From assembly GCA_038153405.1 (NCBI GenBank), contig JAYOYH010000016.1, positions 1 to 25,436 of the forward strand: DNA of 25,436 nucleotides. The letters run 5' to 3'. This DNA is from Gemmatimonadota bacterium. Its GTDB lineage: Bacteria; Latescibacterota; UBA2968; UBA8231. Under the pieces are notes generated by a model. That model ran no database searches, was not told the DNA's origin, and saw nothing but the letters and a program-made list of their open reading frames with translations. A program made the position numbers and the translations under genes. Shown here piece after piece: positions 2,753 to 23,607 of the stretch; within the stretch, counting starts at the first letter, position 1, and each line of letters begins with the position of its first letter.

Positions 2753-3091
2753 ATGTCTGAGCGCACGTTGGCTTCTTGTCAGCGCGAAGTAGACGAGTGG
2801 ATTCGCACAGTTGGCGTGCGCTACTTTTCCGAGCTGACCAATACGGCCGTGCTGATGGAAGAAGTGGGCGAGTTGGCGCGCCTGATGGCGCGCACCTACG
2901 GCGAGCAAAGCTTTAAGGACGGCGAAGAGCGCGACCTAGGTATGGAGATGGCCGATGTGCTCTTTGTGCTGATCTGTCTAGCTAACCAGACGGGCGTCGA
3001 TCTGGAAGAGGCCTTTGCCAAGGCGATGGACAAAAAGACCCGCCGCGACCGCGACCGCCACGCCAATAACCCCAAGCTGCAAAGCGAATGA
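2753..3091 (+). CDS. MazG-like nucleotide pyrophosphohydrolase (YpjD-like)
   Basis: QREVDEWI...YFSELTN...LMEEVGELAR...EMADVLFVLICLANQTGVDL. ATG at 2753 follows GGAG. Confidence 0.92.
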   Translation: MSERTLASCQREVDEWIRTVGVRYFSELTNTAVLMEEVGELARLMARTYGEQSFKDGEERDLGMEMADVLFVLICLANQTGVDLEEAFAKAMDKKTRRDRDRHANNPKLQSE

Positions 3092-4416
3092 GTTGGAGGC
3101 GCCTGTGGTTGATGTTCTGCACATTGACGCTGGGAGTGGCGTCCTGTAGCGCCGTCAATCCGACGGCCAGCCTTGAATACGCGCCGAGCCGTCTATCCAT
3201 TGGGCCGCTGCTCGTCGGTACCTGGCTGCCGGCCGGCATGAACGACTTTCGCTTTGATGGCGAAGACCGCGCGCTGCTAGAAGAAGTGGGCATCAACGCC
3301 GTGCAGTGGCTGCAGCGCCACGAAGACGGGTCCGGAACAGCCGAAGCACAGTTGATGCGCTTTGCCTCGGAGCGCGGTTGGCAAATGCCGGCCTATTACG
3401 AGCCGTCCGATCTAACTCCATACGATAAGTTGCACAATTGGGCCACGCGCGTTGAGGAGGTGAATGCCGACTCTCTGCACTTGGTCGTCGAAGGCGTGCG
3501 CCGTCAGTGGGATGCGGTACCGGCTTTCGCCGGATATTTGGTCGGACACGAGGACTATCGCAGGGATTATTACCCTGCGCTAGCCGCAGTAGTAAAGGCG
3601 CTGGGCCAGAGCGATCCGCGGCGCCCGGTATACAGCGTGGGGCGCTTGCGCGACTATCAGGATGCGCGCGCGTTTTTCGATGCGCTTTTTGATGCCGGAG
3701 CACCGGGCAACGTATTTCAGCAGGAGCACTACGTTTTTCGCGGCCAGGTCCCCGAACAGGGGCGCGCCTTCCAGCGGCGCATCGCCGATCTGACCGATGG
3801 CTACGACGAGGTCGTGCGCGGTTTGGAAGGGCGCACGGGACGTTGGCACGCCATTGTCCAAGTGCAGAGCGAAGTGCGCGGTGAAAAAATATACTATCGA
3901 AAGCCAACGGCGGCCGAAATTCGCCTGCAAGTCGGTTTGGCGCTTTCGCGGGGTGCTTCGGGCATCGTCTACTTCCTCTATAGCTCGGGATTAGAAGAAC
4001 TGCGCGATGCGCAGGGCGATCTGGTCGAGACTCGCCTTTACGAAGGGCTCGTCGACCGGAGCGGGCGGCCAACGTCGAGCTATGCGGCTGTGCAGCGGCT
4101 CAACGGCGACTTGCGCACCTTGAGTAGCGAGCTGGAAGCGCTGCATTTTCACGGCGCGCTGTCCTCGCGCTTTCTCTTGGTAAACGAATGGGTAGAACGC
4201 CTTGACGGCGATGCGGAAGTCGGGCTTTTTGGCGACGGCCAGCAGGTCAGTCACCTACTCGTCGTCAATCGCTGGGGACACGCCGTCCAGCGCGTGCGCC
4301 TGCAGCTGGGTGCCCACTGGGCGCTTGACGGCGCCGAGCAACGCGTTGAGCTTGAACTGGCGGCGGGCGATTTTCGCCTGCTGCGCATTGAGCAAAGGAG
4401 CATTGGCAATGAGTAA
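3088..4416 (+). CDS. putative lipoprotein with glycoside-hydrolase-like TIM barrel
   Basis: ATGA overlap with the upstream gene. Signal peptide ends in lipobox-like VASC. FAGYLVGHE, ALSRGASGIVYFLY and a beta-rich C-terminus resemble clan GH-A-like barrels. Confidence 0.6.
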   Translation: MSWRRLWLMFCTLTLGVASCSAVNPTASLEYAPSRLSIGPLLVGTWLPAGMNDFRFDGEDRALLEEVGINAVQWLQRHEDGSGTAEAQLMRFASERGWQMPAYYEPSDLTPYDKLHNWATRVEEVNADSLHLVVEGVRRQWDAVPAFAGYLVGHEDYRRDYYPALAAVVKALGQSDPRRPVYSVGRLRDYQDARAFFDALFDAGAPGNVFQQEHYVFRGQVPEQGRAFQRRIADLTDGYDEVVRGLEGRTGRWHAIVQVQSEVRGEKIYYRKPTAAEIRLQVGLALSRGASGIVYFLYSSGLEELRDAQGDLVETRLYEGLVDRSGRPTSSYAAVQRLNGDLRTLSSELEALHFHGALSSRFLLVNEWVERLDGDAEVGLFGDGQQVSHLLVVNRWGHAVQRVRLQLGAHWALDGAEQRVELELAAGDFRLLRIEQRSIGNE

Positions 4417-5167: not shown

Positions 5168-5196
5168 CGCGCAGCACACAGTAGCGCGCAGGAGTG

Positions 5197-5231
5197 AATC
5201 CCGCTGGTCCCCAAGACCGGCGGGATTTTTT
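5197..5231 (+). terminator. intrinsic terminator
   Basis: AATCCCGCTGGTC-cccaa-GACCGGCGGGATT running into a T-tract, 30 nt after the SDR stop. Confidence 0.85.
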
Positions 5232-5265
5232 ATATCAACGCCCGAAATCTAATATATTACCTAGT

Positions 5266-7311
5266 ATGAGTATTGAGCCGGACATAGCGTCGACTAGCAA
5301 CGACGAGCGGCCTAACAGCGGTCTGCGCGAAGGGTCTATATCGCATGCCGAGGTCAATGCCGCGCTGCGCGCGCACGAGAAGACCGTCGTCTTTGGCCAG
5401 CAAAATCGCCTGCGCGCCGGTATGCTCATGGCCGACGACAAGCTACCGCGCTACCACGCCGGCCACGACGTGGTGAAGTTTTTTTATGGCGCCATTCGCC
5501 AGTTGCCCGAGCCCTACGTGGATGCGCTACTCCACTGGGGCGTCAGCGTGACCATGGTCAAAAGTCCACATCTGCTGGTTTTTTACCACGCGCGCGCCCA
5601 CCAGTCCTTTCACGTAGGCTACACGCGCAAGACTGTCTACATGCCGGAAATGGTGCTGAAAGAAGCCTATAACAAAGGCTATGACTACTGGGCGATAAGC
5701 GAGACGCTGATAGCGGAGACCACGCCGCTGATGGACTATCTGATGCTGCTGGAATTTTTCCAGCGCGCGCGCCTACGCCTTCACTCGCACCATACGTTGG
5801 GCCACCATTTTGTGCGCAGCACCATGGAAGAGCTCAACAAGCATCTGGAGCATACCGACGATCCAGAGTGCGAATTCAATCTGTTCTACACTACCTACGA
5901 AGATCATTTATACGAGGTCCAGCGCGATGACGGAAGCGACCCGTTCGCGTGGGTCGATGGTATTTTTGACGAGGAGATCGAGCGCAAATGGGCGCGCTTA
6001 AAGCTCTTTAGCGTGCGCGTTCACTTCGGCTATCCGCGTTATTACGACATTGATCGCGACATCGTGCATCCGGCGGCATTTGCCGCGGCCGAGCGGTTGG
6101 GAATGTCGGTTGAGCCGCAGAGCGTGGCCGATCTCCAGCACGATCTGCAGGATGTGGCGCGCTTTGGGGTCAGTGCACAGATCAAGGGCGATGCGCTCAT
6201 TGACCAACTCATCGAGCGCGGCGCGCCGGGCATCAAGGGTTTTGCTGAACTGGGATGGACCGAGGGCGAATACTGGGGAGGGGGTTACTATCCGGCAGTC
6301 GAATTTAAAGACGAGCTGCAGCGCAATTCGAGCGGGCCAGATGAACCGATGTACGGCTGCGTCGCGCTGGATTTTCGTCAGCTGCTGCACCTGGATCAGC
6401 TCGACGATCTGCAGGGGCTCTTCAACAGCCGCCATCGGCTGGCTTTTCGCAAGAAGAAATCGGCCGTGTTTCGCCTGCTCAAATTGGGCGGTGGCAGCGA
6501 TGTTAAACAGCTAGTCATTGAATGCGCTGCGCTGCTGGAATATTCTCAGAACGACGACGAACTCATAGTTGGGTTGATGGAGATCCTATGGGACCACTAT
6601 CTGTGCCTCGACAGAGACGCCCCAGATTTTTCCCGCTTTTTGCTGGGGCAGATCGTGCGTAAGCTCGATCGTCACCCGCTATACCACGACGTATTCTTGC
6701 CGCAGTACACTCAATTGAGCGGCGGGCAAAAACTCGTCGTGCGCGAGAATGCACGCGAGGTCATAGACTATCTGGCAGAACGGGTGCCAGAGCAGCCATC
6801 GCGCTTTTCCTACGATCCCCAGCGCCTGCGCGCTCGCTGGCACGTCTTCACTGAGCGCAGGAAAATAGACGGCGGCAATCCAGAACTGCTGAATATCTTG
6901 GCCGGGGTGCTGCTGCGACTGGATCGCAGGGATGACTACGGCGAATTGGTTGCTGAAGTGGCTCAACTGGGTGATCGGGCGAATGAGGCCTGTCGCGAAA
7001 TTGTCGAGTGCACAGATCCCAAAGACGAACAGCGCCAAGCCATACTCCGCGCGGCGCTACATTTGTTGGACGATGAGAAGATCGATGGCGAGGAGGTCAC
7101 AGCACCCCCTGTAAATCGCCCGTCGCTGTTGGCGAGCTTCTACTCGGTGATAGACCGTCCCAAACCGGATGATCGCAATCAGCCGCTGAGCGGCTACATG
7201 CGCGATGAAGGGATGAGCAAGGAGCAAGTGCTGCACAAGCTGAAGGGGCGCGGAGGCCATGCGCTGGCGGCACACCGCGCAGTAGTAGAACTGCTTTTTT
7301 TCGCGTCGTAA
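5266..7311 (+). CDS. large hypothetical protein (681 aa), mostly helical
   Basis: Long ORF with host-like codon usage. The longer start at 5194 runs through the terminator, so ATG at 5266 is preferred. No recognised family. Confidence 0.85.
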   Translation: MSIEPDIASTSNDERPNSGLREGSISHAEVNAALRAHEKTVVFGQQNRLRAGMLMADDKLPRYHAGHDVVKFFYGAIRQLPEPYVDALLHWGVSVTMVKSPHLLVFYHARAHQSFHVGYTRKTVYMPEMVLKEAYNKGYDYWAISETLIAETTPLMDYLMLLEFFQRARLRLHSHHTLGHHFVRSTMEELNKHLEHTDDPECEFNLFYTTYEDHLYEVQRDDGSDPFAWVDGIFDEEIERKWARLKLFSVRVHFGYPRYYDIDRDIVHPAAFAAAERLGMSVEPQSVADLQHDLQDVARFGVSAQIKGDALIDQLIERGAPGIKGFAELGWTEGEYWGGGYYPAVEFKDELQRNSSGPDEPMYGCVALDFRQLLHLDQLDDLQGLFNSRHRLAFRKKKSAVFRLLKLGGGSDVKQLVIECAALLEYSQNDDELIVGLMEILWDHYLCLDRDAPDFSRFLLGQIVRKLDRHPLYHDVFLPQYTQLSGGQKLVVRENAREVIDYLAERVPEQPSRFSYDPQRLRARWHVFTERRKIDGGNPELLNILAGVLLRLDRRDDYGELVAEVAQLGDRANEACREIVECTDPKDEQRQAILRAALHLLDDEKIDGEEVTAPPVNRPSLLASFYSVIDRPKPDDRNQPLSGYMRDEGMSKEQVLHKLKGRGGHALAAHRAVVELLFFAS

Positions 7312-7617: not shown

Positions 7618-9240
7618 ATGGGTACAAGCAAAGAGGCCCAGATGGATTTACTGGCGGCCGATGCCCCAGCCGCTCCGCGCAGTGCGCGCAACGGCAAAGC
7701 CACTGCCCAGTCGATGGCGTCGCGCCAGCGCGAGATCTCCGTATCGGAATTTTTCAGCCGCAATCGCCATTTACTCGGTTTCGACAACCCGCGCCGCTCG
7801 CTGTTGACGGGCATAAAAGAGGCGGTTGATAACAGTTTAGACGCTTGCGAAGAAGCAGGTATACTGCCCGATATCGAGGTGCAGCTGACGCAGGTGGCTG
7901 ACGATCGCTATATCATGCGGGTGTGCGACAATGGTCCGGGCATCGTCAAAAGCCAGATCCCCAACATCTTTGGCAAATTGCTCTACGGTTCAAAATTTCA
8001 TCGTTTGCGCATGTCGCGCGGACAGCAGGGAATTGGCATATCGGCTACGAGCATGTACGGCCAGCTGACGACGGGTAAAGCTACGCGCGTCATTTCGCGC
8101 ACCGGGTCTCGTCGCCCGGCTACCTACTATGAAATTCAGATCGATACTGCACACAACAAGCCGCAAATCGTGCGCGACGAACAGTGTGAGTGGGATCGTG
8201 CGCAGGGCACGCAGGTCGAAATTGAAATGGAGGCGCGCTACCAGCGCGGCCGTCAATCGGTAGACGAGTACCTGCGCCAGACCGCGTTGGCCAATCCGCA
8301 TTTAAAGCTGTTCTACACGGCACCCGATGGGCGCGAAGAGCTATACGAGCGCAGCAGTGTGGACATGCCCGACGAGGCGCAGGAGATCAAACCACATCCG
8401 CACGGTATTGAGCTCGGCGTGCTGATGAAAATGCTGCAGGGTACTCCGCACCGCACGCTGCAGGGTTTTTTGACGCAGGAGTTCTCGCGCGTGTCGGTGC
8501 GCGTGGCCAAGGACATTTGCACCAAGGCCGATCTCAAACCCAATGGCAGGCCTAAGAGCATTGCGCGCGAGGAAAGCGATCGCCTATTCAAGGCCATCAA
8601 TGCGACCAAGTTGATGCGCCCGCCGACCGACTGCATCGTGCCTATTGGCGAGGAGCTATTACTCGACTCCCTGCGCTCCAACGTCAACGCGGCGTTTTAC
8701 GCTTCGACGACGCGCCCGCCCTCTGTCTACCGCGGTAATCCCTTTCAAATCGAAGTGGCGGTGGCCTACGGTGGCGATATCAATGCGGAGGGGGCCGTGC
8801 AACTCATGCGCTTTGCCAACCGCGTGCCGCTGCTCTACCAGCCTTCGGCGTGCGCCATTACGCGCAGTCTGATCGATACGGACTGGCGTAACTACCGCAT
8901 TAGCCAAAGCAACAACGCGCTGCCTACGGGACCCTTAGTCGTCATCGTGCACGTGGCCTCCGTGTGGGTTCCCTTTACGTCGGAGAGCAAAGATGCCGTA
9001 GCCCACTACGACGAAATTATTAAGGAAATTCGCTTAGGCGTGCAGGAATGCGGTCGCAAGGTCGGAGAGCATATTGGCAAGATGCGGCGCGAGGCTGAGG
9101 CGTCGCGCAAAAAAGATTACATCGCTCAGTATATAGGGCATATTGCCGCTGCGCTACAAGAGATAACGGGAGATAGCGACAAGAAGACGCAGAGTGTAGA
9201 AAACAACTTGCAGGGCCTGTTGGAGAGGAGTCGCTCGTGA
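7618..9240 (+). CDS. top6B: DNA topoisomerase VI subunit B
   Basis: [22 protein letters not shown] motifs ([28 protein letters not shown]), KPHPHG, an H2TH segment, [10 protein letters not shown] and [10 protein letters not shown]. Confidence 0.97.
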
Positions 9241-10325
9241 ACGAAGACCTGCTAAAACAGATTGCCAGAGAGGCCAAGAGCATCCGCGATAAGATTTTGC
9301 GCAAACAGAAGCCGTCCATGAAGTTTCCGCTGCGCAATCTGAGCAACGTCAAATTCGATCCTAAGGCAGGATTTTTTCAGATCGGTCGCAAAACCAAAGA
9401 GCGCACGCTGGCCGTGTCGACGGTAAAGACCTTTGCCCAGTCGCTCAAGATGATTGCGCTGTCGAAAAATCTGATCGAGACCGACGATATAGCGACCAAG
9501 CGCGAAGCGTATTACGTGGCCAAGGGCTGGTCGGAGGAAATTCGCTTTGCCGAGCAGACCGAGTCCGATGCGGTGCTCGACGACGTGGAGGCATTTTTTT
9601 CGGTCAATCGCGAGCAGTTGGGTTTTGTGCCCGAAGAAAAGGGCGGAGAGGTCGCCGGTCGCTTGGTCGTCTATGACGTCGACCGCGACAGCGGCGAGGA
9701 GTTAGCTATCGACTGCACCCGGTTTGGCTCAGGTGCCTATTCAATACCCATTTCTGTCGAGCATCTGCGCTTCGAGTCGGGCGCCAAATTTATTCTCGCC
9801 ATCGAGACCGCGGGCATGTTCCAGCGCTTGGTCAAGCACAACTACTGGCGCACGGCCGACTGCATCTTGGTTTCGATGGGCGGTGTGCCCACGCGCGCGA
9901 CGCGGCGCTTTATACGGCGATTGAGCGAAGAGTTGGATATTCCCACCTACGCTTTTGTCGACTGCGATCCCTACGGAATTTGCAATATCTATCGCACGCT
10001 CAAGGTCGGCTCGGGCAATGCCGCGCATATCAACGAAGCCTTCTGCGTGCCGCGCGCTCATTTTCTCGGCGTGACGCCCGACGATATCGAAGAGTACGGC
10101 TTGCCGACGCACAAGATGACCGATGTCGATATCAAGCGCATTGATGATGCGCTGAAAAATGATCCGTTTGTCCAGCACTACAAGAAGTGGCAGGACGCGC
10201 TGCTCAGGCTCAAAGAGATGGGTTACCGCGCCGAGCAGCAGGCCTTTGCCGTGCACGACCTAAATCACGTCATCGATACCTACCTGCCGGAAAAATTGGA
10301 GCGCGCCAACCAGTTTTTGCCCTGA
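9237..10325 (+). CDS. top6A: DNA topoisomerase VI subunit A (Spo11 family)
   Basis: GTGA overlap with top6B. ATKREAYY (catalytic Tyr), [38 protein letters not shown] and AEQQA. Confidence 0.97.
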
Positions 10326-10521: not shown

Positions 10522-11292
10522 ATGAAGAAGCCGTTATATAGGTACGGTCGCTATTTGTGGCGTAATAGGTTGGGCTATTGCAATATATGCAGAATGCCGT
10601 CAGTCTTTTTGCACACTCAGTCGTACAGCACGCTGCGCGATGACTTGGAATGTATATTTTGCCGTGGTATTTCTAGAAATCGCCATTTGGTGCAGAGTGT
10701 AGAGCGACTGTTTGCTAATCGAGGTGTTCGGTGTATTAGAGATTTGGACAATATAGAAGGCTTTAGCGCTTATATATCTGCTTTTTCGGGAGCAGTGGCT
10801 TCTAGTATTCGAGATCTCGAATGTGTAGTTACATCAGAATATCACGATGGTTGCCAATCAGGAGAGTGGAGAGAAGGCATTCTATGTCAGAATATAGAAG
10901 AGATGTCTTTTGACAGTGAGTCGTTTGATTTGGTAATAACGGAAGATGTTCTGGAGCATGTGCAAGATTACAAAAAAGCACTAACGGATATCTTTCGCGT
11001 ATTAAAAAAAGATGGGGCTTTTGTATTTACTGTACCATTTTTTTTCGATAGAAAAACAGAACCCCTGTGGAGTTTTGTCGAGGGGAACTGGCAGCCGATT
11101 GTTCATCCCATAGAGTACCACGGTGATAGTATTCGCGGGTTGATTCCAGCTTTTAATCGGTTTGGAAGAGATTTTTTTGATGTGTTAGAAAAAATTGGTT
11201 TTCAAACAGAAGTTGTGTTTTCTACTTTCCGAGATACGCGGTATGTGCGCATATATGACTGTTACACATTCGTATCGTCAAAAAGTGAATAG
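10522..11292 (+). CDS. class I SAM-dependent methyltransferase-like protein with N-terminal Zn ribbon
   Basis: CNIC...CIFC pair. QNIEEMSFDSESFDLVITEDVLEHV...RVLKKDGAFVFTVP is a Methyltransf_11-like signature. AGGAG RBS; AT-rich. Confidence 0.85.
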   Translation: MKKPLYRYGRYLWRNRLGYCNICRMPSVFLHTQSYSTLRDDLECIFCRGISRNRHLVQSVERLFANRGVRCIRDLDNIEGFSAYISAFSGAVASSIRDLECVVTSEYHDGCQSGEWREGILCQNIEEMSFDSESFDLVITEDVLEHVQDYKKALTDIFRVLKKDGAFVFTVPFFFDRKTEPLWSFVEGNWQPIVHPIEYHGDSIRGLIPAFNRFGRDFFDVLEKIGFQTEVVFSTFRDTRYVRIYDCYTFVSSKSE

Positions 11293-11308
11293 ATAATATG
11301 TTGTGAAT

Positions 11309-11361
11309 TCAATTTCTAAGCGCACTTTCCAAGCACCGCGAAAAGTGCGCTTAGAAATTGA
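11309..11361. terminator. 20-bp perfect inverted repeat between convergent genes (probable bidirectional terminator)
   Basis: TCAATTTCTAAGCGCACTTT-13 nt-AAAGTGCGCTTAGAAATTGA. Confidence 0.7.
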
Positions 11362-11365
11362 TGTG

Positions 11366-12412
11366 TTAATCGAGTTTAGCGGGTGTTTCTGCCGTCTTTG
11401 AAACGCGCCCCAGCGCGACAGGTATACCTCCGGCTAAACGCGATAATGTCCCCAAGAAACTTAGTGCTATATACACGCCCACTTCTTCAGTGCCTATACC
11501 CACACGCGTTAAAAGTAGTGTCATGAGTCCTTCGCGGATGCCTATACCACCCGGGGTAAGAGGTAATATTACGATGGTAACTTCAATAAGCGCTAAGATT
11601 GCAGCAAATGGCCAAAAGAAGAATTTCCCACTAATCCCATATAGAACAATTGCCGTACCGAATACCAGAGATAATTGAATGCAAAGCGTGATGATGATTG
11701 CGTATATCAGCGCCCGGTATTGCGTGCGGAATACGTACACTGCATCGCGTATAACGGCTAGCTTCTTGAGAAGGGGTGTGGGCACAATGCGCTCGCTTAA
11801 GAGCCTAATAGGCCGAGTGAGACGTTTGGAAAATGAAGCGGCAAGAGCAAGAAATAGAACAGTGGCAGATGCCAGTAATAAAGGGCCCACGTCGAATTTG
11901 CCCAAGTTGAGCAACTGCGTTTCCATCGCGATGCCCAACAAGCCGATCATCATCCAACCGACTAGGCCCAGCAGCTTGGATAACCAGGTTGATCCCCAGA
12001 CGACGGCATAGTCTATCTGGCGCGATAAAAGCACGGCGCGCACGATCTCTTGAGCACTAGCTCCCGGTAACACCATGGCGTAAAACGAAGCGGCAAAGTG
12101 GGTTTCTATGGTTTTCCACGGTGATAGGTCGGTTGCTGCAGTGCGCAGCAAAACCCACCAGCGAAATGCCTGAAGTGCCATTGGAAACAGGGGTGAGAGC
12201 AAGGCCATGGCTAAGACCCACAGCGGCACATCCCGTAAAACGCTCTCCAACTCGGCGTAGTCCAACTGCGCGTAGATCCACGCAAATGGAGCGACTATCG
12301 CCGCCGTGCGCAGTATGCGCAAAAACCACCTGCGCAGCGTCGCATTTGAAGCGATATAACGCTTTGCACAGAGTAGGAATCTACTGCGCGTTTTATCGTT
12401 TTGACTCGACAA
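11366..12412 (-). CDS. lysylphosphatidylglycerol synthase TM-like / UPF0104 flippase-like membrane protein
   Basis: About 8 hydrophobic segments; LQAFRWWVLL, FYAMVLPG and LPLTPGGIGIRE motifs. Start position uncertain. Confidence 0.88.
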   Translation of the reverse strand: MSSQNDKTRSRFLLCAKRYIASNATLRRWFLRILRTAAIVAPFAWIYAQLDYAELESVLRDVPLWVLAMALLSPLFPMALQAFRWWVLLRTAATDLSPWKTIETHFAASFYAMVLPGASAQEIVRAVLLSRQIDYAVVWGSTWLSKLLGLVGWMMIGLLGIAMETQLLNLGKFDVGPLLLASATVLFLALAASFSKRLTRPIRLLSERIVPTPLLKKLAVIRDAVYVFRTQYRALIYAIIITLCIQLSLVFGTAIVLYGISGKFFFWPFAAILALIEVTIVILPLTPGGIGIREGLMTLLLTRVGIGTEEVGVYIALSFLGTLSRLAGGIPVALGRVSKTAETPAKLD

Positions 12413-13496: not shown

Positions 13497-13677
13497 TGCA
13501 TTGAGCTCCGACGAGTCGAGATGAGAGGCGAATGGGTAACTGCTTGTGGCAGGGCAATGTATTAATATCTGGGCGGTGTAACCAGAGAAAAGTGCGCTGT
13601 TTCGTCCCCGTTTGACGCGGCGTGCGACCCTGTCTTTTTTACTAGATGAGACGCGACTGCGCGGGAGTTTACCGAAT

Positions 13678-14967
13678 ATGTCTGTAGAACATCGCACTGC
13701 AATCGTCGTTGGCGGCGGACCGGCTGGCCTGCCGCTGGCTGCCGTACTGGGAGGTTGGTACCCCTTTTTTCGTTCGGGAACGACGTTTTCTCGCCGCTAT
13801 GCCCCCTTGGCTGACCATCTGCAGCAGGTGCGCGGATCGCTGCTGGGCCTCGATTTTAGGGACTTGGTTGCGCGCGGTATCGCGCCGGTGGACCTGTTTC
13901 GCGCACTGCACCACCCGCGTAAGCTGTTCGAAGACCTCGACCAGGTGGCGATGGAGTTTCGCCGCGCTGAGGGTGTCGACGTGCTGCTTCTAACGCGCGA
14001 AGAGGTAGGCGGTCTGTGGAACAATGCGCCGCGCAACCTGCTGACGCTGTCGCCGGGGCAGTGGATGGAGTTCGCCTTTTATCCGCTTGCCCAGCACGCC
14101 GAAGAAGTTGGTCTCGATATCGACGTCAACGCCCTGATAAAGAAAACGGACCTAATCGACTACTACCACCGCGTGCCGTCGCGCTTTGCCGTCGAAGATC
14201 GCGTCCGCACCTGGCAAGATGTCTACGAGATTGCGCCCCATGAAAAGGGGTTTGCGGTGCGCGCGCGCGATGTGCGCACGGGCGATGAAAGCGCTTATAC
14301 ATGCAAGTATGTAGTCTATGCGACGGGGCAGCGCGCCAAACTGCGCCAGCTCGAAGTGGAGGGCGAGGACCTGCCCTTTGTCACGCCGTTCTACGACAAC
14401 CCCGACGATTTTTCCGGCGAGCGCGTGATGGTCGTGGGTGGAGGGCGTTCGGGCGATTGGGCGGCCACGGAGCTGCACGACGCCGGCAAGCAGGTCTACT
14501 ATAGCATGCGGCAGGGCGACGGCGTGCACTGGCAGTTGATCAACGATAGCCTCTACCTGCCCTATTATCAGCGCATTGCCGATATCTTGCGCGATAATTC
14601 ACCGCGCTTAGAAGCGCTCTACGGCACGCGCATCGAGCGCATTGAAGCCAGCGGTGCCGTCTCGCTGAACGGTCCGGCCGGACTGCGTACGGTGGAGGTC
14701 GATCACGTCGTCAAAGAAATTGGTGGTTGGGCCGACTACGCGCTGTTGCAGAAATTTGGTCCACTCTCGCTTTTTGACAAGCGCGATGCCTACCGCTTTC
14801 AGGTTCACCAATTGCAGACCCATGCGCACAACTACGAGTCCGTCGATATTCCGAATCTGTACGCCGGGGGCTATTTGGCACAGGACATCGGGCTGGTCGT
14901 GATGGCCATGCACGGTACGACGTATGCCATAGCTGGTGATATCCTGCAGAAAGAGGGGATACTGTAG
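13678..14967 (+). CDS. FAD/NAD(P)-dependent oxidoreductase (flavin monooxygenase/YpdA-like), OSGIN-like N-terminus
   Basis: IVVGGGPAG (FAD), GGLW, YATG, VVGGGRSG (NADPH) and IPNLYAGG. GGGAG upstream of ATG at 13678. Confidence 0.88.
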   Translation: MSVEHRTAIVVGGGPAGLPLAAVLGGWYPFFRSGTTFSRRYAPLADHLQQVRGSLLGLDFRDLVARGIAPVDLFRALHHPRKLFEDLDQVAMEFRRAEGVDVLLLTREEVGGLWNNAPRNLLTLSPGQWMEFAFYPLAQHAEEVGLDIDVNALIKKTDLIDYYHRVPSRFAVEDRVRTWQDVYEIAPHEKGFAVRARDVRTGDESAYTCKYVVYATGQRAKLRQLEVEGEDLPFVTPFYDNPDDFSGERVMVVGGGRSGDWAATELHDAGKQVYYSMRQGDGVHWQLINDSLYLPYYQRIADILRDNSPRLEALYGTRIERIEASGAVSLNGPAGLRTVEVDHVVKEIGGWADYALLQKFGPLSLFDKRDAYRFQVHQLQTHAHNYESVDIPNLYAGGYLAQDIGLVVMAMHGTTYAIAGDILQKEGIL

Positions 14968-15004
14968 GTGCGGTGGGGCTGATCTACGGTCGGCAATGGG
15001 CACG

Positions 15005-15041
15005 CAAAAGGCCGCTACCCATACGGCGTAGCGGCCTTTTG
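15005..15041. terminator. bidirectional intrinsic terminator
   Basis: CAAAAGGCCGCTAC-ccatacggc-GTAGCGGCCTTTTG between convergent genes. Confidence 0.88.
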
Positions 15042-15065
15042 TATTGCCGTGCGCACAGCCTGCCG

Positions 15066-16269: not shown

Positions 16270-17034
16270 ATGAAATTGTTTACGCCTAGTGTTGCGCGCG
16301 CGCGCGGTTCTGTGACACTTTTCTCGCTTTCTTGGTTCATTGGCTTTATGGTACTTAGCATGCCAACCGTCGGTGAAGCAGGAGGTGAACTGACCTACTA
16401 TTTCGATTCGAGGTCGTACAATACGCTCAACGTCTTGACCAGCGTGAGTGACTTGCCCGGGAACGTCAATATCTGGGGTTTTACCGACTTTCACGGGGTG
16501 CAAAAGGACGCCGGCGAACGCTTTGATCTGACGCGCTACTTTATGGAGTACCGGCTGCGGCGCGGCATTGATCCAAACTGGATCGCAGGGCTGAACGGAG
16601 TGGGCGTTGAGGTCGAGTATAATGACGGGGCTGCTTACAGGGAGGACGCAACAAAAGATACTACGGCTACTACGGCTAAAAATCCGTCTAACATGCTGCG
16701 CTTCGGCGTCAATTACAAGCACGGCCTACAATTTGCGGGGTTGGAAGGGGGTTGGTTACAGTGGCGCCTATTCCCCTATGAAACCGATGAATCTGGCCAG
16801 CAGTTTAGCGTAGTGCATTTCCTGCCGCTGGCCCCCAAGGTTAGCGTTGCCGGTTTTGCCGATCTGAATATCAATAAGGGCACGTCGCATCGATGGGTCG
16901 TGGAGTCGCAGTTGACGTATCGCATCCACAAAGCGATCGGCCTGGTGCTCGAAGTGCGCTACAACGGCTTCGAAGATGCCAACCCAATCCTAGATGGAAT
17001 TGGCATAGCCGGCGGTCTGAGCGCGCCGCTGTAG
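16270..17034 (+). CDS. putative outer-membrane beta-barrel protein (Tsx-like)
   Basis: Signal-like N-terminus and alternating amphipathic strands (NIWGFTDF, RYFMEYRL, SVAGFADLN, WVVESQLTY, LVLEVRYN). First gene of a three-gene unit. Confidence 0.65.
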   Translation: MKLFTPSVARARGSVTLFSLSWFIGFMVLSMPTVGEAGGELTYYFDSRSYNTLNVLTSVSDLPGNVNIWGFTDFHGVQKDAGERFDLTRYFMEYRLRRGIDPNWIAGLNGVGVEVEYNDGAAYREDATKDTTATTAKNPSNMLRFGVNYKHGLQFAGLEGGWLQWRLFPYETDESGQQFSVVHFLPLAPKVSVAGFADLNINKGTSHRWVVESQLTYRIHKAIGLVLEVRYNGFEDANPILDGIGIAGGLSAPL

Positions 17035-23023: not shown

Positions 23024-23607
23024 TTAAATGGTGCAGATATCGTAGGTGGTCTGCAGCGCCTATAGCGAATCGCTTTTGAGACTAAACTCATGGCCGACGT
23101 ATCTGCTGTAGCCGGTGGCCTGTATGGCGCGCATAATGGCTGGATAGTAGAGCTCTTGCTCGTCGTCGAGGCCGTTACGGCCTGGGTTGCCAGCGGTGTG
23201 GTAGTGGCCGATGCGCTCGGCATAGTCAGTGATGGTGCGAATGATATCGCCCTCCATGATCTGCATGTGGTAAATGTCGTAGAGCAGCTTCACGGCGGGC
23301 GATCCGACGGCGCGGCACATGGCCACCCCCCACGGGGTGTGGTCGCACTGGCAGTCGGGGTGGTTGACCTTTGAGTTGAGCAATTCCATACACAGGGCGA
23401 CGCCTTTCTCCTCGGTGCTGGGTATAACACGACGCAGTTAGCCAAGCCTTCTTCTGAAGATTTGCCTTCGCTATTGCCCGAAAAGCAGATGAGCGCGGGA
23501 ATGTAGAATGCGGCGGACTCGTCGATGCGCGCAGCCTCTTTAACGACCTGCTCGGGCGTGACGCCGCCGCGCGTAAAAGGGCTAAAACACACCGATTGTT
23601 TGATCAT
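23024..23607 (-). pseudogene. disrupted hydroxypyruvate isomerase (Hyi)-family TIM-barrel gene
   Basis: [43 protein letters not shown] and [11 protein letters not shown] are split over two frames. Short N-terminus, frameshift near 23430-23437 and internal TAG at 23060-23062. Confidence 0.88.

Follow-up and report, generated by a model that had tools for sequence, protein, structure and literature searches.

A flavoprotein gene of uncultured bacteria is a probable deep-branching relative of the OSGIN/OKL38 family

OSGIN1 and OSGIN2 (the OKL38 family) are animal enzymes of stress and cell division, and according to the accessible text of a 2025 review their genes appear confined to Eukarya, fungi and protists included; their substrate is unknown and no complete phylogeny exists. 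The review adds that 81 bacterial proteins are putatively assigned to the OKL38 family in InterPro, that orthologs from prokaryotes are identified in no database, and that a likeness to YpdA of Bacillus halodurans had been pointed out in 2004 (PMC11940746). In the available part of a second report, OSGIN of worm and human is an FAD-binding protein whose oxidation of methimazole and of the thiol TNB requires NADPH, its substrate being unknown (10.1101/2023.08.06.552159). The bacillithiol disulfide reductase Bdr (YpdA) reduces its substrate at the flavin C4a without a cysteine and oxidises NADPH in air when no substrate is present, as stated in the available part of the report on it (10.1101/2020.12.02.408641). 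The accessible portion of a 2026 preprint (10.64898/2026.09.08.750123) makes no mention of prokaryotes, phylogeny or YpdA. Beyond the review, we found no published study of bacterial OSGIN/OKL38 relatives in a search that lay mostly outside subscription papers, and the bacterial link has been foreshadowed in databases and apparently not analysed in print.

In this study, we analysed a gene in a 25,436-nt stretch of DNA (the window) that encodes a 429-aa protein, P0001, in an intact open frame from an ATG to a TAG stop (Table 1). An alternative upstream TTG start (451 aa) is unlikely to be used, judging from the alignment, because the same Met starts the relatives. The gene is single-copy in its own 93%-complete genome. 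The gene upstream, for an RraA-like aldolase, points away from it and the one downstream (DUF4380) runs towards it, with a hairpin between the two stop codons that is likely a bidirectional terminator; the gene is therefore likely to be monocistronic at this locus. A search for a sigma-70-like promoter of the gene found none. One estuary metatranscriptome contained two 151-nt contigs matching the 3′ part of the gene at 99% or more, which are too few to count and may be DNA carry-over, and no contig on the adjoining genes.

Table 1. Coordinates in the window of the P0001 gene, its protein motifs (residues of P0001) and the flanking signals
Feature	Position	Strand	Basis
GGGAG, likely ribosome-binding site, ATG 10 nt further on	13663..13667	+	sequence; function putative
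ORF P0001, predicted 429-aa FAD/NADPH flavoprotein, probable bacterial sister clade of OSGIN	13678..14967	+	sequence, family search, profiles, tree
FAD-binding GxGxxG motif GGGPAG, residues 12-17; position of YpdA Cys14, without Cys	13711..13728	+	sequence, alignment
Insert, residues 23-99 (77 aa): strand, three or four helices, strand in model	13744..13974	+	profile alignment, predicted models
GGxW ... TLSPxxWME block, residues 111-131	14008..14070	+	alignment
NADPH-binding GGGRSGDW (254-261) to invariant R278	14437..14511	+	sequence, alignment
C-terminal flavin-side loop GGYLAQDIGLVVMAMHG, residues 397-413	14866..14916	+	alignment
Strong hairpin between two convergent genes, with A and T runs on its flanks	15004..15042	.	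-36.2 kcal/mol, z -6.6, 0/200 shuffles

Several other features of the window deserve record. Topoisomerase VI B and A genes of archaeal type lie at 7618-10325 (+) in this bacterium, where a gene for a 705-aa protein (5194-7311) comes before them; 11 of 81 loci have topoisomerase VI genes close to that of the flavoprotein. Neither Pfam nor NCBIfam gave a match for the 705-aa protein. Such matches are likewise missing for a 442-aa lipoprotein-like ORF (3088-4416, +) and for a 254-aa secreted or outer-membrane-like ORF (16270-17034, +), the latter followed by genes for a periplasmic binding protein and a hybrid histidine kinase. A patch of low GC content (10522-12412; 45-47% vs 55-60%) carries a methyltransferase and a membrane protein of the lysylphosphatidylglycerol-synthase type, and may be an insertion. 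At 23060-23607 (-), a xylose-isomerase-like gene, which we take to be of the hydroxypyruvate isomerase type, is apparently split across two overlapping short frames and may be a frameshifted or shortened pseudogene.

An earlier note, made from the letters of the window, had likened P0001 to OSGIN on the strength of a series of motifs. All of them are present in the translation and in the order given: GGGPAG, LAAVLGGWYPF (20-30), SLLGLDF (54-60), PVDLFRALHHP (70-80), GGLWN (111-115), LTLSPGQWME (122-131), DLIDYY (158-163), YATG (214-217), GEDLPFV (229-235) and HNYES..IPNLYA (384-396). An OSGIN1-like protein of the fish Polypterus (P0163) has the same blocks in the same order, as do proteins of tick, bed bug and sponge. 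The note had also pointed to an insert of about 70 residues after GGGPAG, and two annotated YpdA proteins indeed show a gap of about 70 columns exactly there; the insert is common to OSGIN and missing from the YpdA and FMO controls. In profile-profile comparison, it matched the eukaryotic OSGIN set with an HHalign probability of 95.2 (E 2.7e-8, score 54, 73 columns), the maximum score in 60 column shuffles being 22, and gave a probability of 0.5 and no alignment with YpdA-like proteins. The similarity to OSGIN thus covers the insert and is not limited to generic Rossmann motifs. Position, length and helix order are the same, and G26, P29, L48, D59, P70, L73, L77 and P80 are conserved with OSGIN. 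An ESM Atlas query with residues 18-175 returned two mostly chordate fragment clusters first (0.91 and 0.89), which is consistent with this and serves as a lead only. The insert likely caps the re-face channel or forms an oligomer surface.

AlphaFold models of P0001 (pLDDT 91.6) and of the bed bug OSGIN (pLDDT 92.5), compared by element order, pass through the insert with the same succession of strand, helices and strand. The top three solved matches are common to both models: Bdr 7A76 (Z 32.3 and 32.5), the type II FMO 4A9W (28.4) and 3D1C. P0001 superposes on Bdr 7A76 with an rmsd of 2.2 Å over 322 residues, the next match standing at Z 28.4, and its fold is predicted to be that of a Bdr/YpdA-like, Cys-free protein with two Rossmann domains.

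A family profile built from 109 members gave 1943 matches at 0.001 among 1.84 billion representatives; 150 were listed, and the names of 30 of these 150 were looked up. Among the matches listed, the family's own members and fragments were followed by full-length matches that were OSGIN-like, namely an OSGIN2-like protein of Oratosquilla (E 3.4e-29, positions 4-430), an OSGIN1-like protein of Polypterus (3e-25), and others from Cimex, Ixodes, the sponge Oscarella, Euglena, Panagrellus and Diplonema; the first YpdA-sized match listed came at 2.4e-19 and was partial. With a reciprocal HMM of 34 eukaryotic proteins, P0001 scored 133 bits in one domain (4-425) and 12 family members 121-159 bits, vs 30-83 bits for 14 YpdA-like and other controls. 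Named OSGINs therefore rank above every YpdA-sized match in both directions, as expected of an OSGIN relative in the earlier note. That note's view of the family as usually discussed as animal-specific is too narrow, given the Euglena and Diplonema proteins found here and the fungi and protists counted in the accessible text of the review (PMC11940746). The ESM Atlas, queried with the full protein, returned two bacterial clusters, then OSGIN1 clusters (0.98), ahead of clusters of YpdA length (0.96). A word-indexed search for longer relatives with an N-terminal alignment gave nine weak TrxB/ferredoxin-type fusions and no OSGIN, which reflects its limited sensitivity, because the full HMM search did find OSGINs.

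The C-terminal half presents another aspect. Over residues 176-345, the match to YpdA-like profiles is better than that to OSGIN (scores of 115 vs 83 and 85 vs 72), and the likeness of this half to YpdA, proposed from the letters, is borne out in that the best PDB and NCBIfam sequence matches are YpdA, over residues ~155-415 only. Pfam assigns P0001 only Pyr_redox_3/2, and its scores lie below the NCBIfam cut-offs for YpdA (TIGR04018, 81.4 bits vs 339.9) and TrxB (TIGR01292, 20.5 bits vs 343). An alignment of 42 eukaryote-type OSGINs has 84 columns with conservation of at least 85%; the P0001 clade keeps 43 of these, YpdA-like proteins 28 and a group of Nitrospirota proteins 82.

The main tree comprised 54 proteins and 307 columns, with the insert removed and the root on TrxB. 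In it the P0001 clade (100/100) is sister to all other OSGIN-like rows (98/95), which themselves form a clade (100/97); a mixture model gave the same shape with supports of 94 and 97, and a 64-row FastTree likewise. P0001 lies outside the YpdA and FMO clades in both trees. In AU tests, joining the P0001 clade with YpdA-like proteins was rejected (p 0.027), as was joining it with eukaryotes only (p 0.0005). Eukaryote monophyly was not rejected (p-AU 0.060), so that the position of the Nitrospirota proteins as sister of animals is a possible one only. Four of the five non-animal eukaryote rows are assumed to be eukaryotic, and the rows include no confirmed fungal or human OSGIN. Because 61 genomes of the phylum yielded no FMO-like outgroup at 1e-25, the FMO controls were taken from plasmid records. 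Taken together, these comparisons make P0001 very probably the deepest-branching bacterial OSGIN/OKL38 relative found. Of the two positions that the note had offered, member or sister group, the second stands and the first does not, since only 43 of the 84 columns are kept, the GDNFVR loop is missing and other bacterial groups intervene. By its residues and branching, P0001 is not an ortholog of OSGIN1/2, as it has neither the immediate-sister position nor their conserved residue set, which includes GNGP, LxD..L..P, GLSAAD, YPEY and GDNFVR and in which an invariant Asp, His and Arg are replaced in P0001.

Alignment with a YpdA-like protein that shares the numbering used in the Bdr report shows that the re-face Phe51 of Bdr corresponds to L124 and its gating Tyr128 to R219. 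T123, W129 and M130 are common to P0001 and OSGIN, and W114 of the GGxW motif is common to OSGIN and all four FMO controls and not to YpdA. The flavin-side loop 397-413 stands in place of OSGIN GPLxGDNFVR, and the invariant OSGIN Arg is missing; H412 in this loop is conserved in the P0001 clade and belongs to its invariant set, together with HH 78-79, R219, GRSxDW and DxYRFQ. R278 is presumably the binder of the 2′-phosphate. P0001 has a single Cys (C209), and the family has no conserved CxxC, any CxxC being present in 3 of 67 members. FxGxxxHxxxY/F, the fingerprint motif of canonical group B FMOs, occurs in 4/4 FMO controls, in 0/67 family members and in 0/34 OSGINs. In a subgroup of the family (loci L062, L063, L067, L070, L071 and L078), a further ~25-30 residues are inserted ahead of the YTC/ATG strand, a place at which long and variable insertions are found in animal OSGINs too.

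We propose, with a probability of about 0.5, that P0001 acts as a single-component flavin enzyme, cysteine-free and dependent on NADPH, which adds oxygen to the sulfur of a small metabolite. FAD would be bound at GGGPAG and the ATG motif, and NADPH, selected by R278, would reduce the flavin from the re-face; O2 would then yield a C4a-(hydro)peroxyflavin, and a small, probably anionic thiol or thioether would enter the re-face channel, where R219 stands for Bdr Tyr128 and L124 for Phe51, and be S-oxygenated. Flavin C4a chemistry on a small sulfur compound is suggested because both tested relatives act on sulfur and because the hosts lack bshC and a canonical gshB: bshC was found in 0/41 genomes (two control genomes exceeded the cut-off), and gshB over the cut-off in 0/41. 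egtB was under the cut-off in 5/5 genomes, with full-length near-matches in two and only a partial one in the genome of the window, while GCS2 was found in two of the five and not in that genome. Canonical TrxB had no match in two genomes (G025 and G040) and none was seen among the matches of the window's own genome (G000), which does encode an 800-aa membrane TrxB/ferredoxin-like fusion on another contig (C71). No residue that would stabilise a C4a-peroxyflavin was identified in P0001. Only 43 of the 84 columns are kept, and another loop takes the place of GDNFVR and its invariant Arg, so that P0001 may act on a different substrate from OSGIN.

The same placement would also accommodate a Bdr-like, cysteine-free NADPH disulfide reductase for a low-molecular-weight thiol of these bacteria, in which case oxidation in air would be flavin uncoupling. 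The closest solved fold, Bdr as clear top match, is that of a reductase, the NADPH half is the more YpdA-like, the gene occurs in one copy and is retained across much of its class as a housekeeping gene would be, and no canonical thiol system was found that would make P0001 redundant; Bdr, too, burns NADPH in air without substrate in the available part of its description (10.1101/2020.12.02.408641). However, the lack of bshC in 41 genomes means that bacillithiol is not the substrate, the TIGR04018 score is 81 vs a cut-off of 340, Phe51 and Tyr128 have given way to L124 and R219, and the relatives nearest by tree among those tested oxidise, as far as the accessible report goes (10.1101/2023.08.06.552159). 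A reductase is therefore the less likely of the two, although it is the alternative that we take most seriously, and S-oxygenation is favoured on account of the oxidising activity of the closest relatives tested and of the GGxW tryptophan, which P0001 shares with OSGIN and FMOs.

The neighbours of the family's genes vary between loci, no operon points to a substrate, and the sole recurrent tight partner is a same-strand gene of the GGT family directly upstream, present in 34/160 loci, 8 of them with a partial copy or remnant (130 loci hold at least 1.5 kb upstream). This linkage changes eight times on the 64-row tree, which suggests that it is old and has been repeatedly lost within one class. 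In the GGT-like protein (example locus L032:4381-5997), the nucleophile position is kept, and ANAKAP and RPLNN replace the REMAP/RERAP and RPLSS of solved GGTs; judged by these replacements, it is probably not a glutathione hydrolase. We take the Arg and the Ser-Ser that it lacks to be the glutamyl-binding residues of solved GGTs. The GGT-like gene is present in 71/153 genomes, all of one class, and was not found in the window's genome or in six congeners; in one genus it occurs in 15/21 genomes and the flavoprotein in 0/21. An obligatory pathway partnership was rejected on this account, the two genes not being co-distributed, and the GGT-like gene is retained as a lead only. Apparent fusions upstream in high-GC loci turned out to be shadow frames over a separate GGT-like gene. 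These surroundings bear on a further alternative, again with the same placement, in which sulfur is not the target: P0001 might be an N-oxygenase or another monooxygenase of catabolism, perhaps taking over from a divergent amidohydrolase of the GGT family, or might serve mainly as an NADPH oxidase. The fold matches that come next include type II FMOs and N-hydroxylases (Z 22-28), the GGT-family gene or fragment is scattered over the tree, and other neighbours are catabolic (PhyH, GFO oxidoreductase, sulfatase). Since the GGT-like gene is not obligatory and both characterised neighbours in sequence space act on sulfur, we consider this improbable, and S-oxygenation remains the reading that we prefer.

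It could further be argued that P0001 has no kinship with OSGIN beyond the superfamily: it might descend from YpdA or an FMO and have gained its insert independently, or be a chimera in which an OSGIN-like N-half is joined to the C-half of a YpdA. Over long alignments, P0001 is 21-27% identical to OSGINs, the same range as the 24-27% to YpdA; for its clade and tick OSGIN1 the figure is 23%. The insert as a single sequence scores weakly, its 6.9 bits exceeding all 2000 shuffles and falling below chance matches in its own genome (10.7 bits), and a grouping of the P0001 clade with FMOs was not rejected (p-AU 0.062). Against this stand the agreement of the insert with OSGIN in position, length, helix order and conserved residues, and the OSGIN-conserved columns, 22 of which are shared with the P0001 clade and not with YpdA, vs 7 in reverse. 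The FAD domain alone joins OSGIN with a support of 97 and the NADPH domain alone with 93 (C-half, 69), and the chimera was rejected because both domains separately group with OSGIN. We regard the absence of any special kinship as quite unlikely.

A protein search returned 245 relatives, the best 120 of which are 57-97% identical and nearly all full length, and 181 of 245 pattern matches were confirmed in species-representative genomes. The record titles of the 80 matches listed name Latescibacterota 44 times, Poribacteria 18, Gemmatimonadota 11, and Handelsmanbacteria and Opitutales once each, five being unclassified; one family member is named from Dehalococcoidia. In the window's phylum, 88 of 153 genomes carry a member at better than 1e-100, in one copy each and with single-contig chromosomes included (92 matched at 1e-30; four weaker rows were dropped, including a copy truncated where its contig stops). 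Of these carriers, 86 fall within the window's class (125 genomes) and two outside it (28 genomes), and the family looks like a vertically kept gene with losses, related genomes not being independent observations. The viral contigs searched held no member of the family or of the unplaced OSGIN-like group, the phages searched no OSGIN-like protein of the Nitrospirota type, and the plasmids searched only YpdA-level matches or none. Contamination or recent transfer from a eukaryote, which might be suspected from the fact that all known carriers are MAGs, several of host-associated lineages, is largely refuted, as the gene sits among bacterial genes (murA, mazG, topo VI), recurs once per genome in 88 of 153 genomes and branches outside all eukaryotic rows, with a eukaryotes-only clade rejected.

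Three or four further bacterial or prokaryote-like groups lie between the P0001 clade and the eukaryotes in the tree: the proteins of Endozoicomonas numazuensis and Spongorhabdus, the unplaced P0144/P0157/P0161, the unplaced P0190 and the Nitrospirota group. The last consists of P0169, P0315, P0334, P0337 and P0165, three of them named from Nitrospirota/Leptospirillia MAGs on contigs of 47-97 kb; P0334 is 38% identical to tick OSGIN1, the tree puts the group as sister to animals (94/91), and on these grounds it is to be seen as near-orthologous to animal OSGIN. The divergent OSGIN-like RefSeq proteins P0270 and P0227/P0424 come from named cultured species, E. numazuensis and Spongorhabdus nitratireducens, hosts in which genetics may be feasible; the accessions are WP_034839218.1 for E. 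numazuensis and WP_461536272.1 for Spongorhabdus. The Nitrospirota, Endozoicomonas and Spongorhabdus proteins are annotated only as NAD(P)-binding proteins, and presumably they are among InterPro's 81 bacterial OKL38 matches. P0144, P0157, P0161 and P0190 are prokaryote-like OSGIN relatives, P0157 being annotated as a thioredoxin reductase on a 154-kb contig.

With somewhat more doubt than confidence, we suggest that OSGIN arose in bacteria, from a YpdA-like, Cys-free flavoprotein that acquired a helical insert, and that eukaryotic OSGINs lie inside at least four bacterial lineages (the P0001 clade, Endozoicomonadaceae, the unplaced proteins and the Nitrospirota MAGs). If so, the cytokinesis regulator OSGIN1 would act on a small sulfur metabolite handed down from bacterial chemistry, and compact bacterial enzymes could serve to find it. 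A sister clade that is stably inherited in bacteria, together with the closer bacterial groups, roots the OSGIN family and gives an order of features, with the insert and the GGxW and WM blocks first and the GDNFVR loop later; it also places OSGIN structurally beside the Cys-free reductase Bdr rather than canonical FMOs. The expectation that a bacterial relative would help in tracing origin and substrate holds in its first part, P0001 being a good marker of origin, and less so in its second, since the most distant OSGIN-like lineage is a weaker proxy for the animal substrate. The short bacterial proteins are candidates for a first structure and for substrate screens, and the Nitrospirota proteins are the better proxy for OSGIN because the active-site loop of the P0001 clade, whose hosts are uncultured, differs. 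Of greater interest still is the succession of OSGIN-like lineages in bacteria, the Nitrospirota group above all.

Compared with known systems, P0001 shares with OSGIN1/OSGIN2 and the C. elegans protein OSGN-1 full-length homology that includes the insert, the GGxW, TLS, WM and GEDLPFV blocks, the lack of the FMO fingerprint, the predicted fold and the top PDB matches. Unlike them, it lacks the GNGP Asn, LEGRS, the insert Asp, the His before GGxW, GLSAAD, the HxFR His, YPEY and GDNFVR, and it is bacterial, with no RhoA or cytokinesis context. Bdr/YpdA (PDB 7A76, 7A7B; TIGR04018) is the closest solved fold and has in common with P0001 the absence of a redox Cys at the flavin, GEDLPxV and an NADPH-type Arg, whereas it has no insert, its Phe51 and Tyr128 are replaced in P0001, the acidic residue after strand 2 is Thr in P0001, and bshC is missing from the hosts searched. 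The group B FMOs (the type II FMO of Stenotrophomonas 4A9W and ArsO/CzcO-like proteins) resemble P0001 in their single-component fold of two Rossmann domains, the GGxW tryptophan and the re-face SP motif, but they lack the insert and form a separate clade in both trees, and the P0001 family lacks their fingerprint. In contrast to thioredoxin reductase TrxB, P0001 has no redox CxxC in its NADPH domain. The OSGIN-like proteins of Nitrospirota MAGs and of Endozoicomonas and Spongorhabdus are, like P0001, bacterial and of the same fold family with the same insert, and unlike the P0001 clade they branch closer to eukaryotes.
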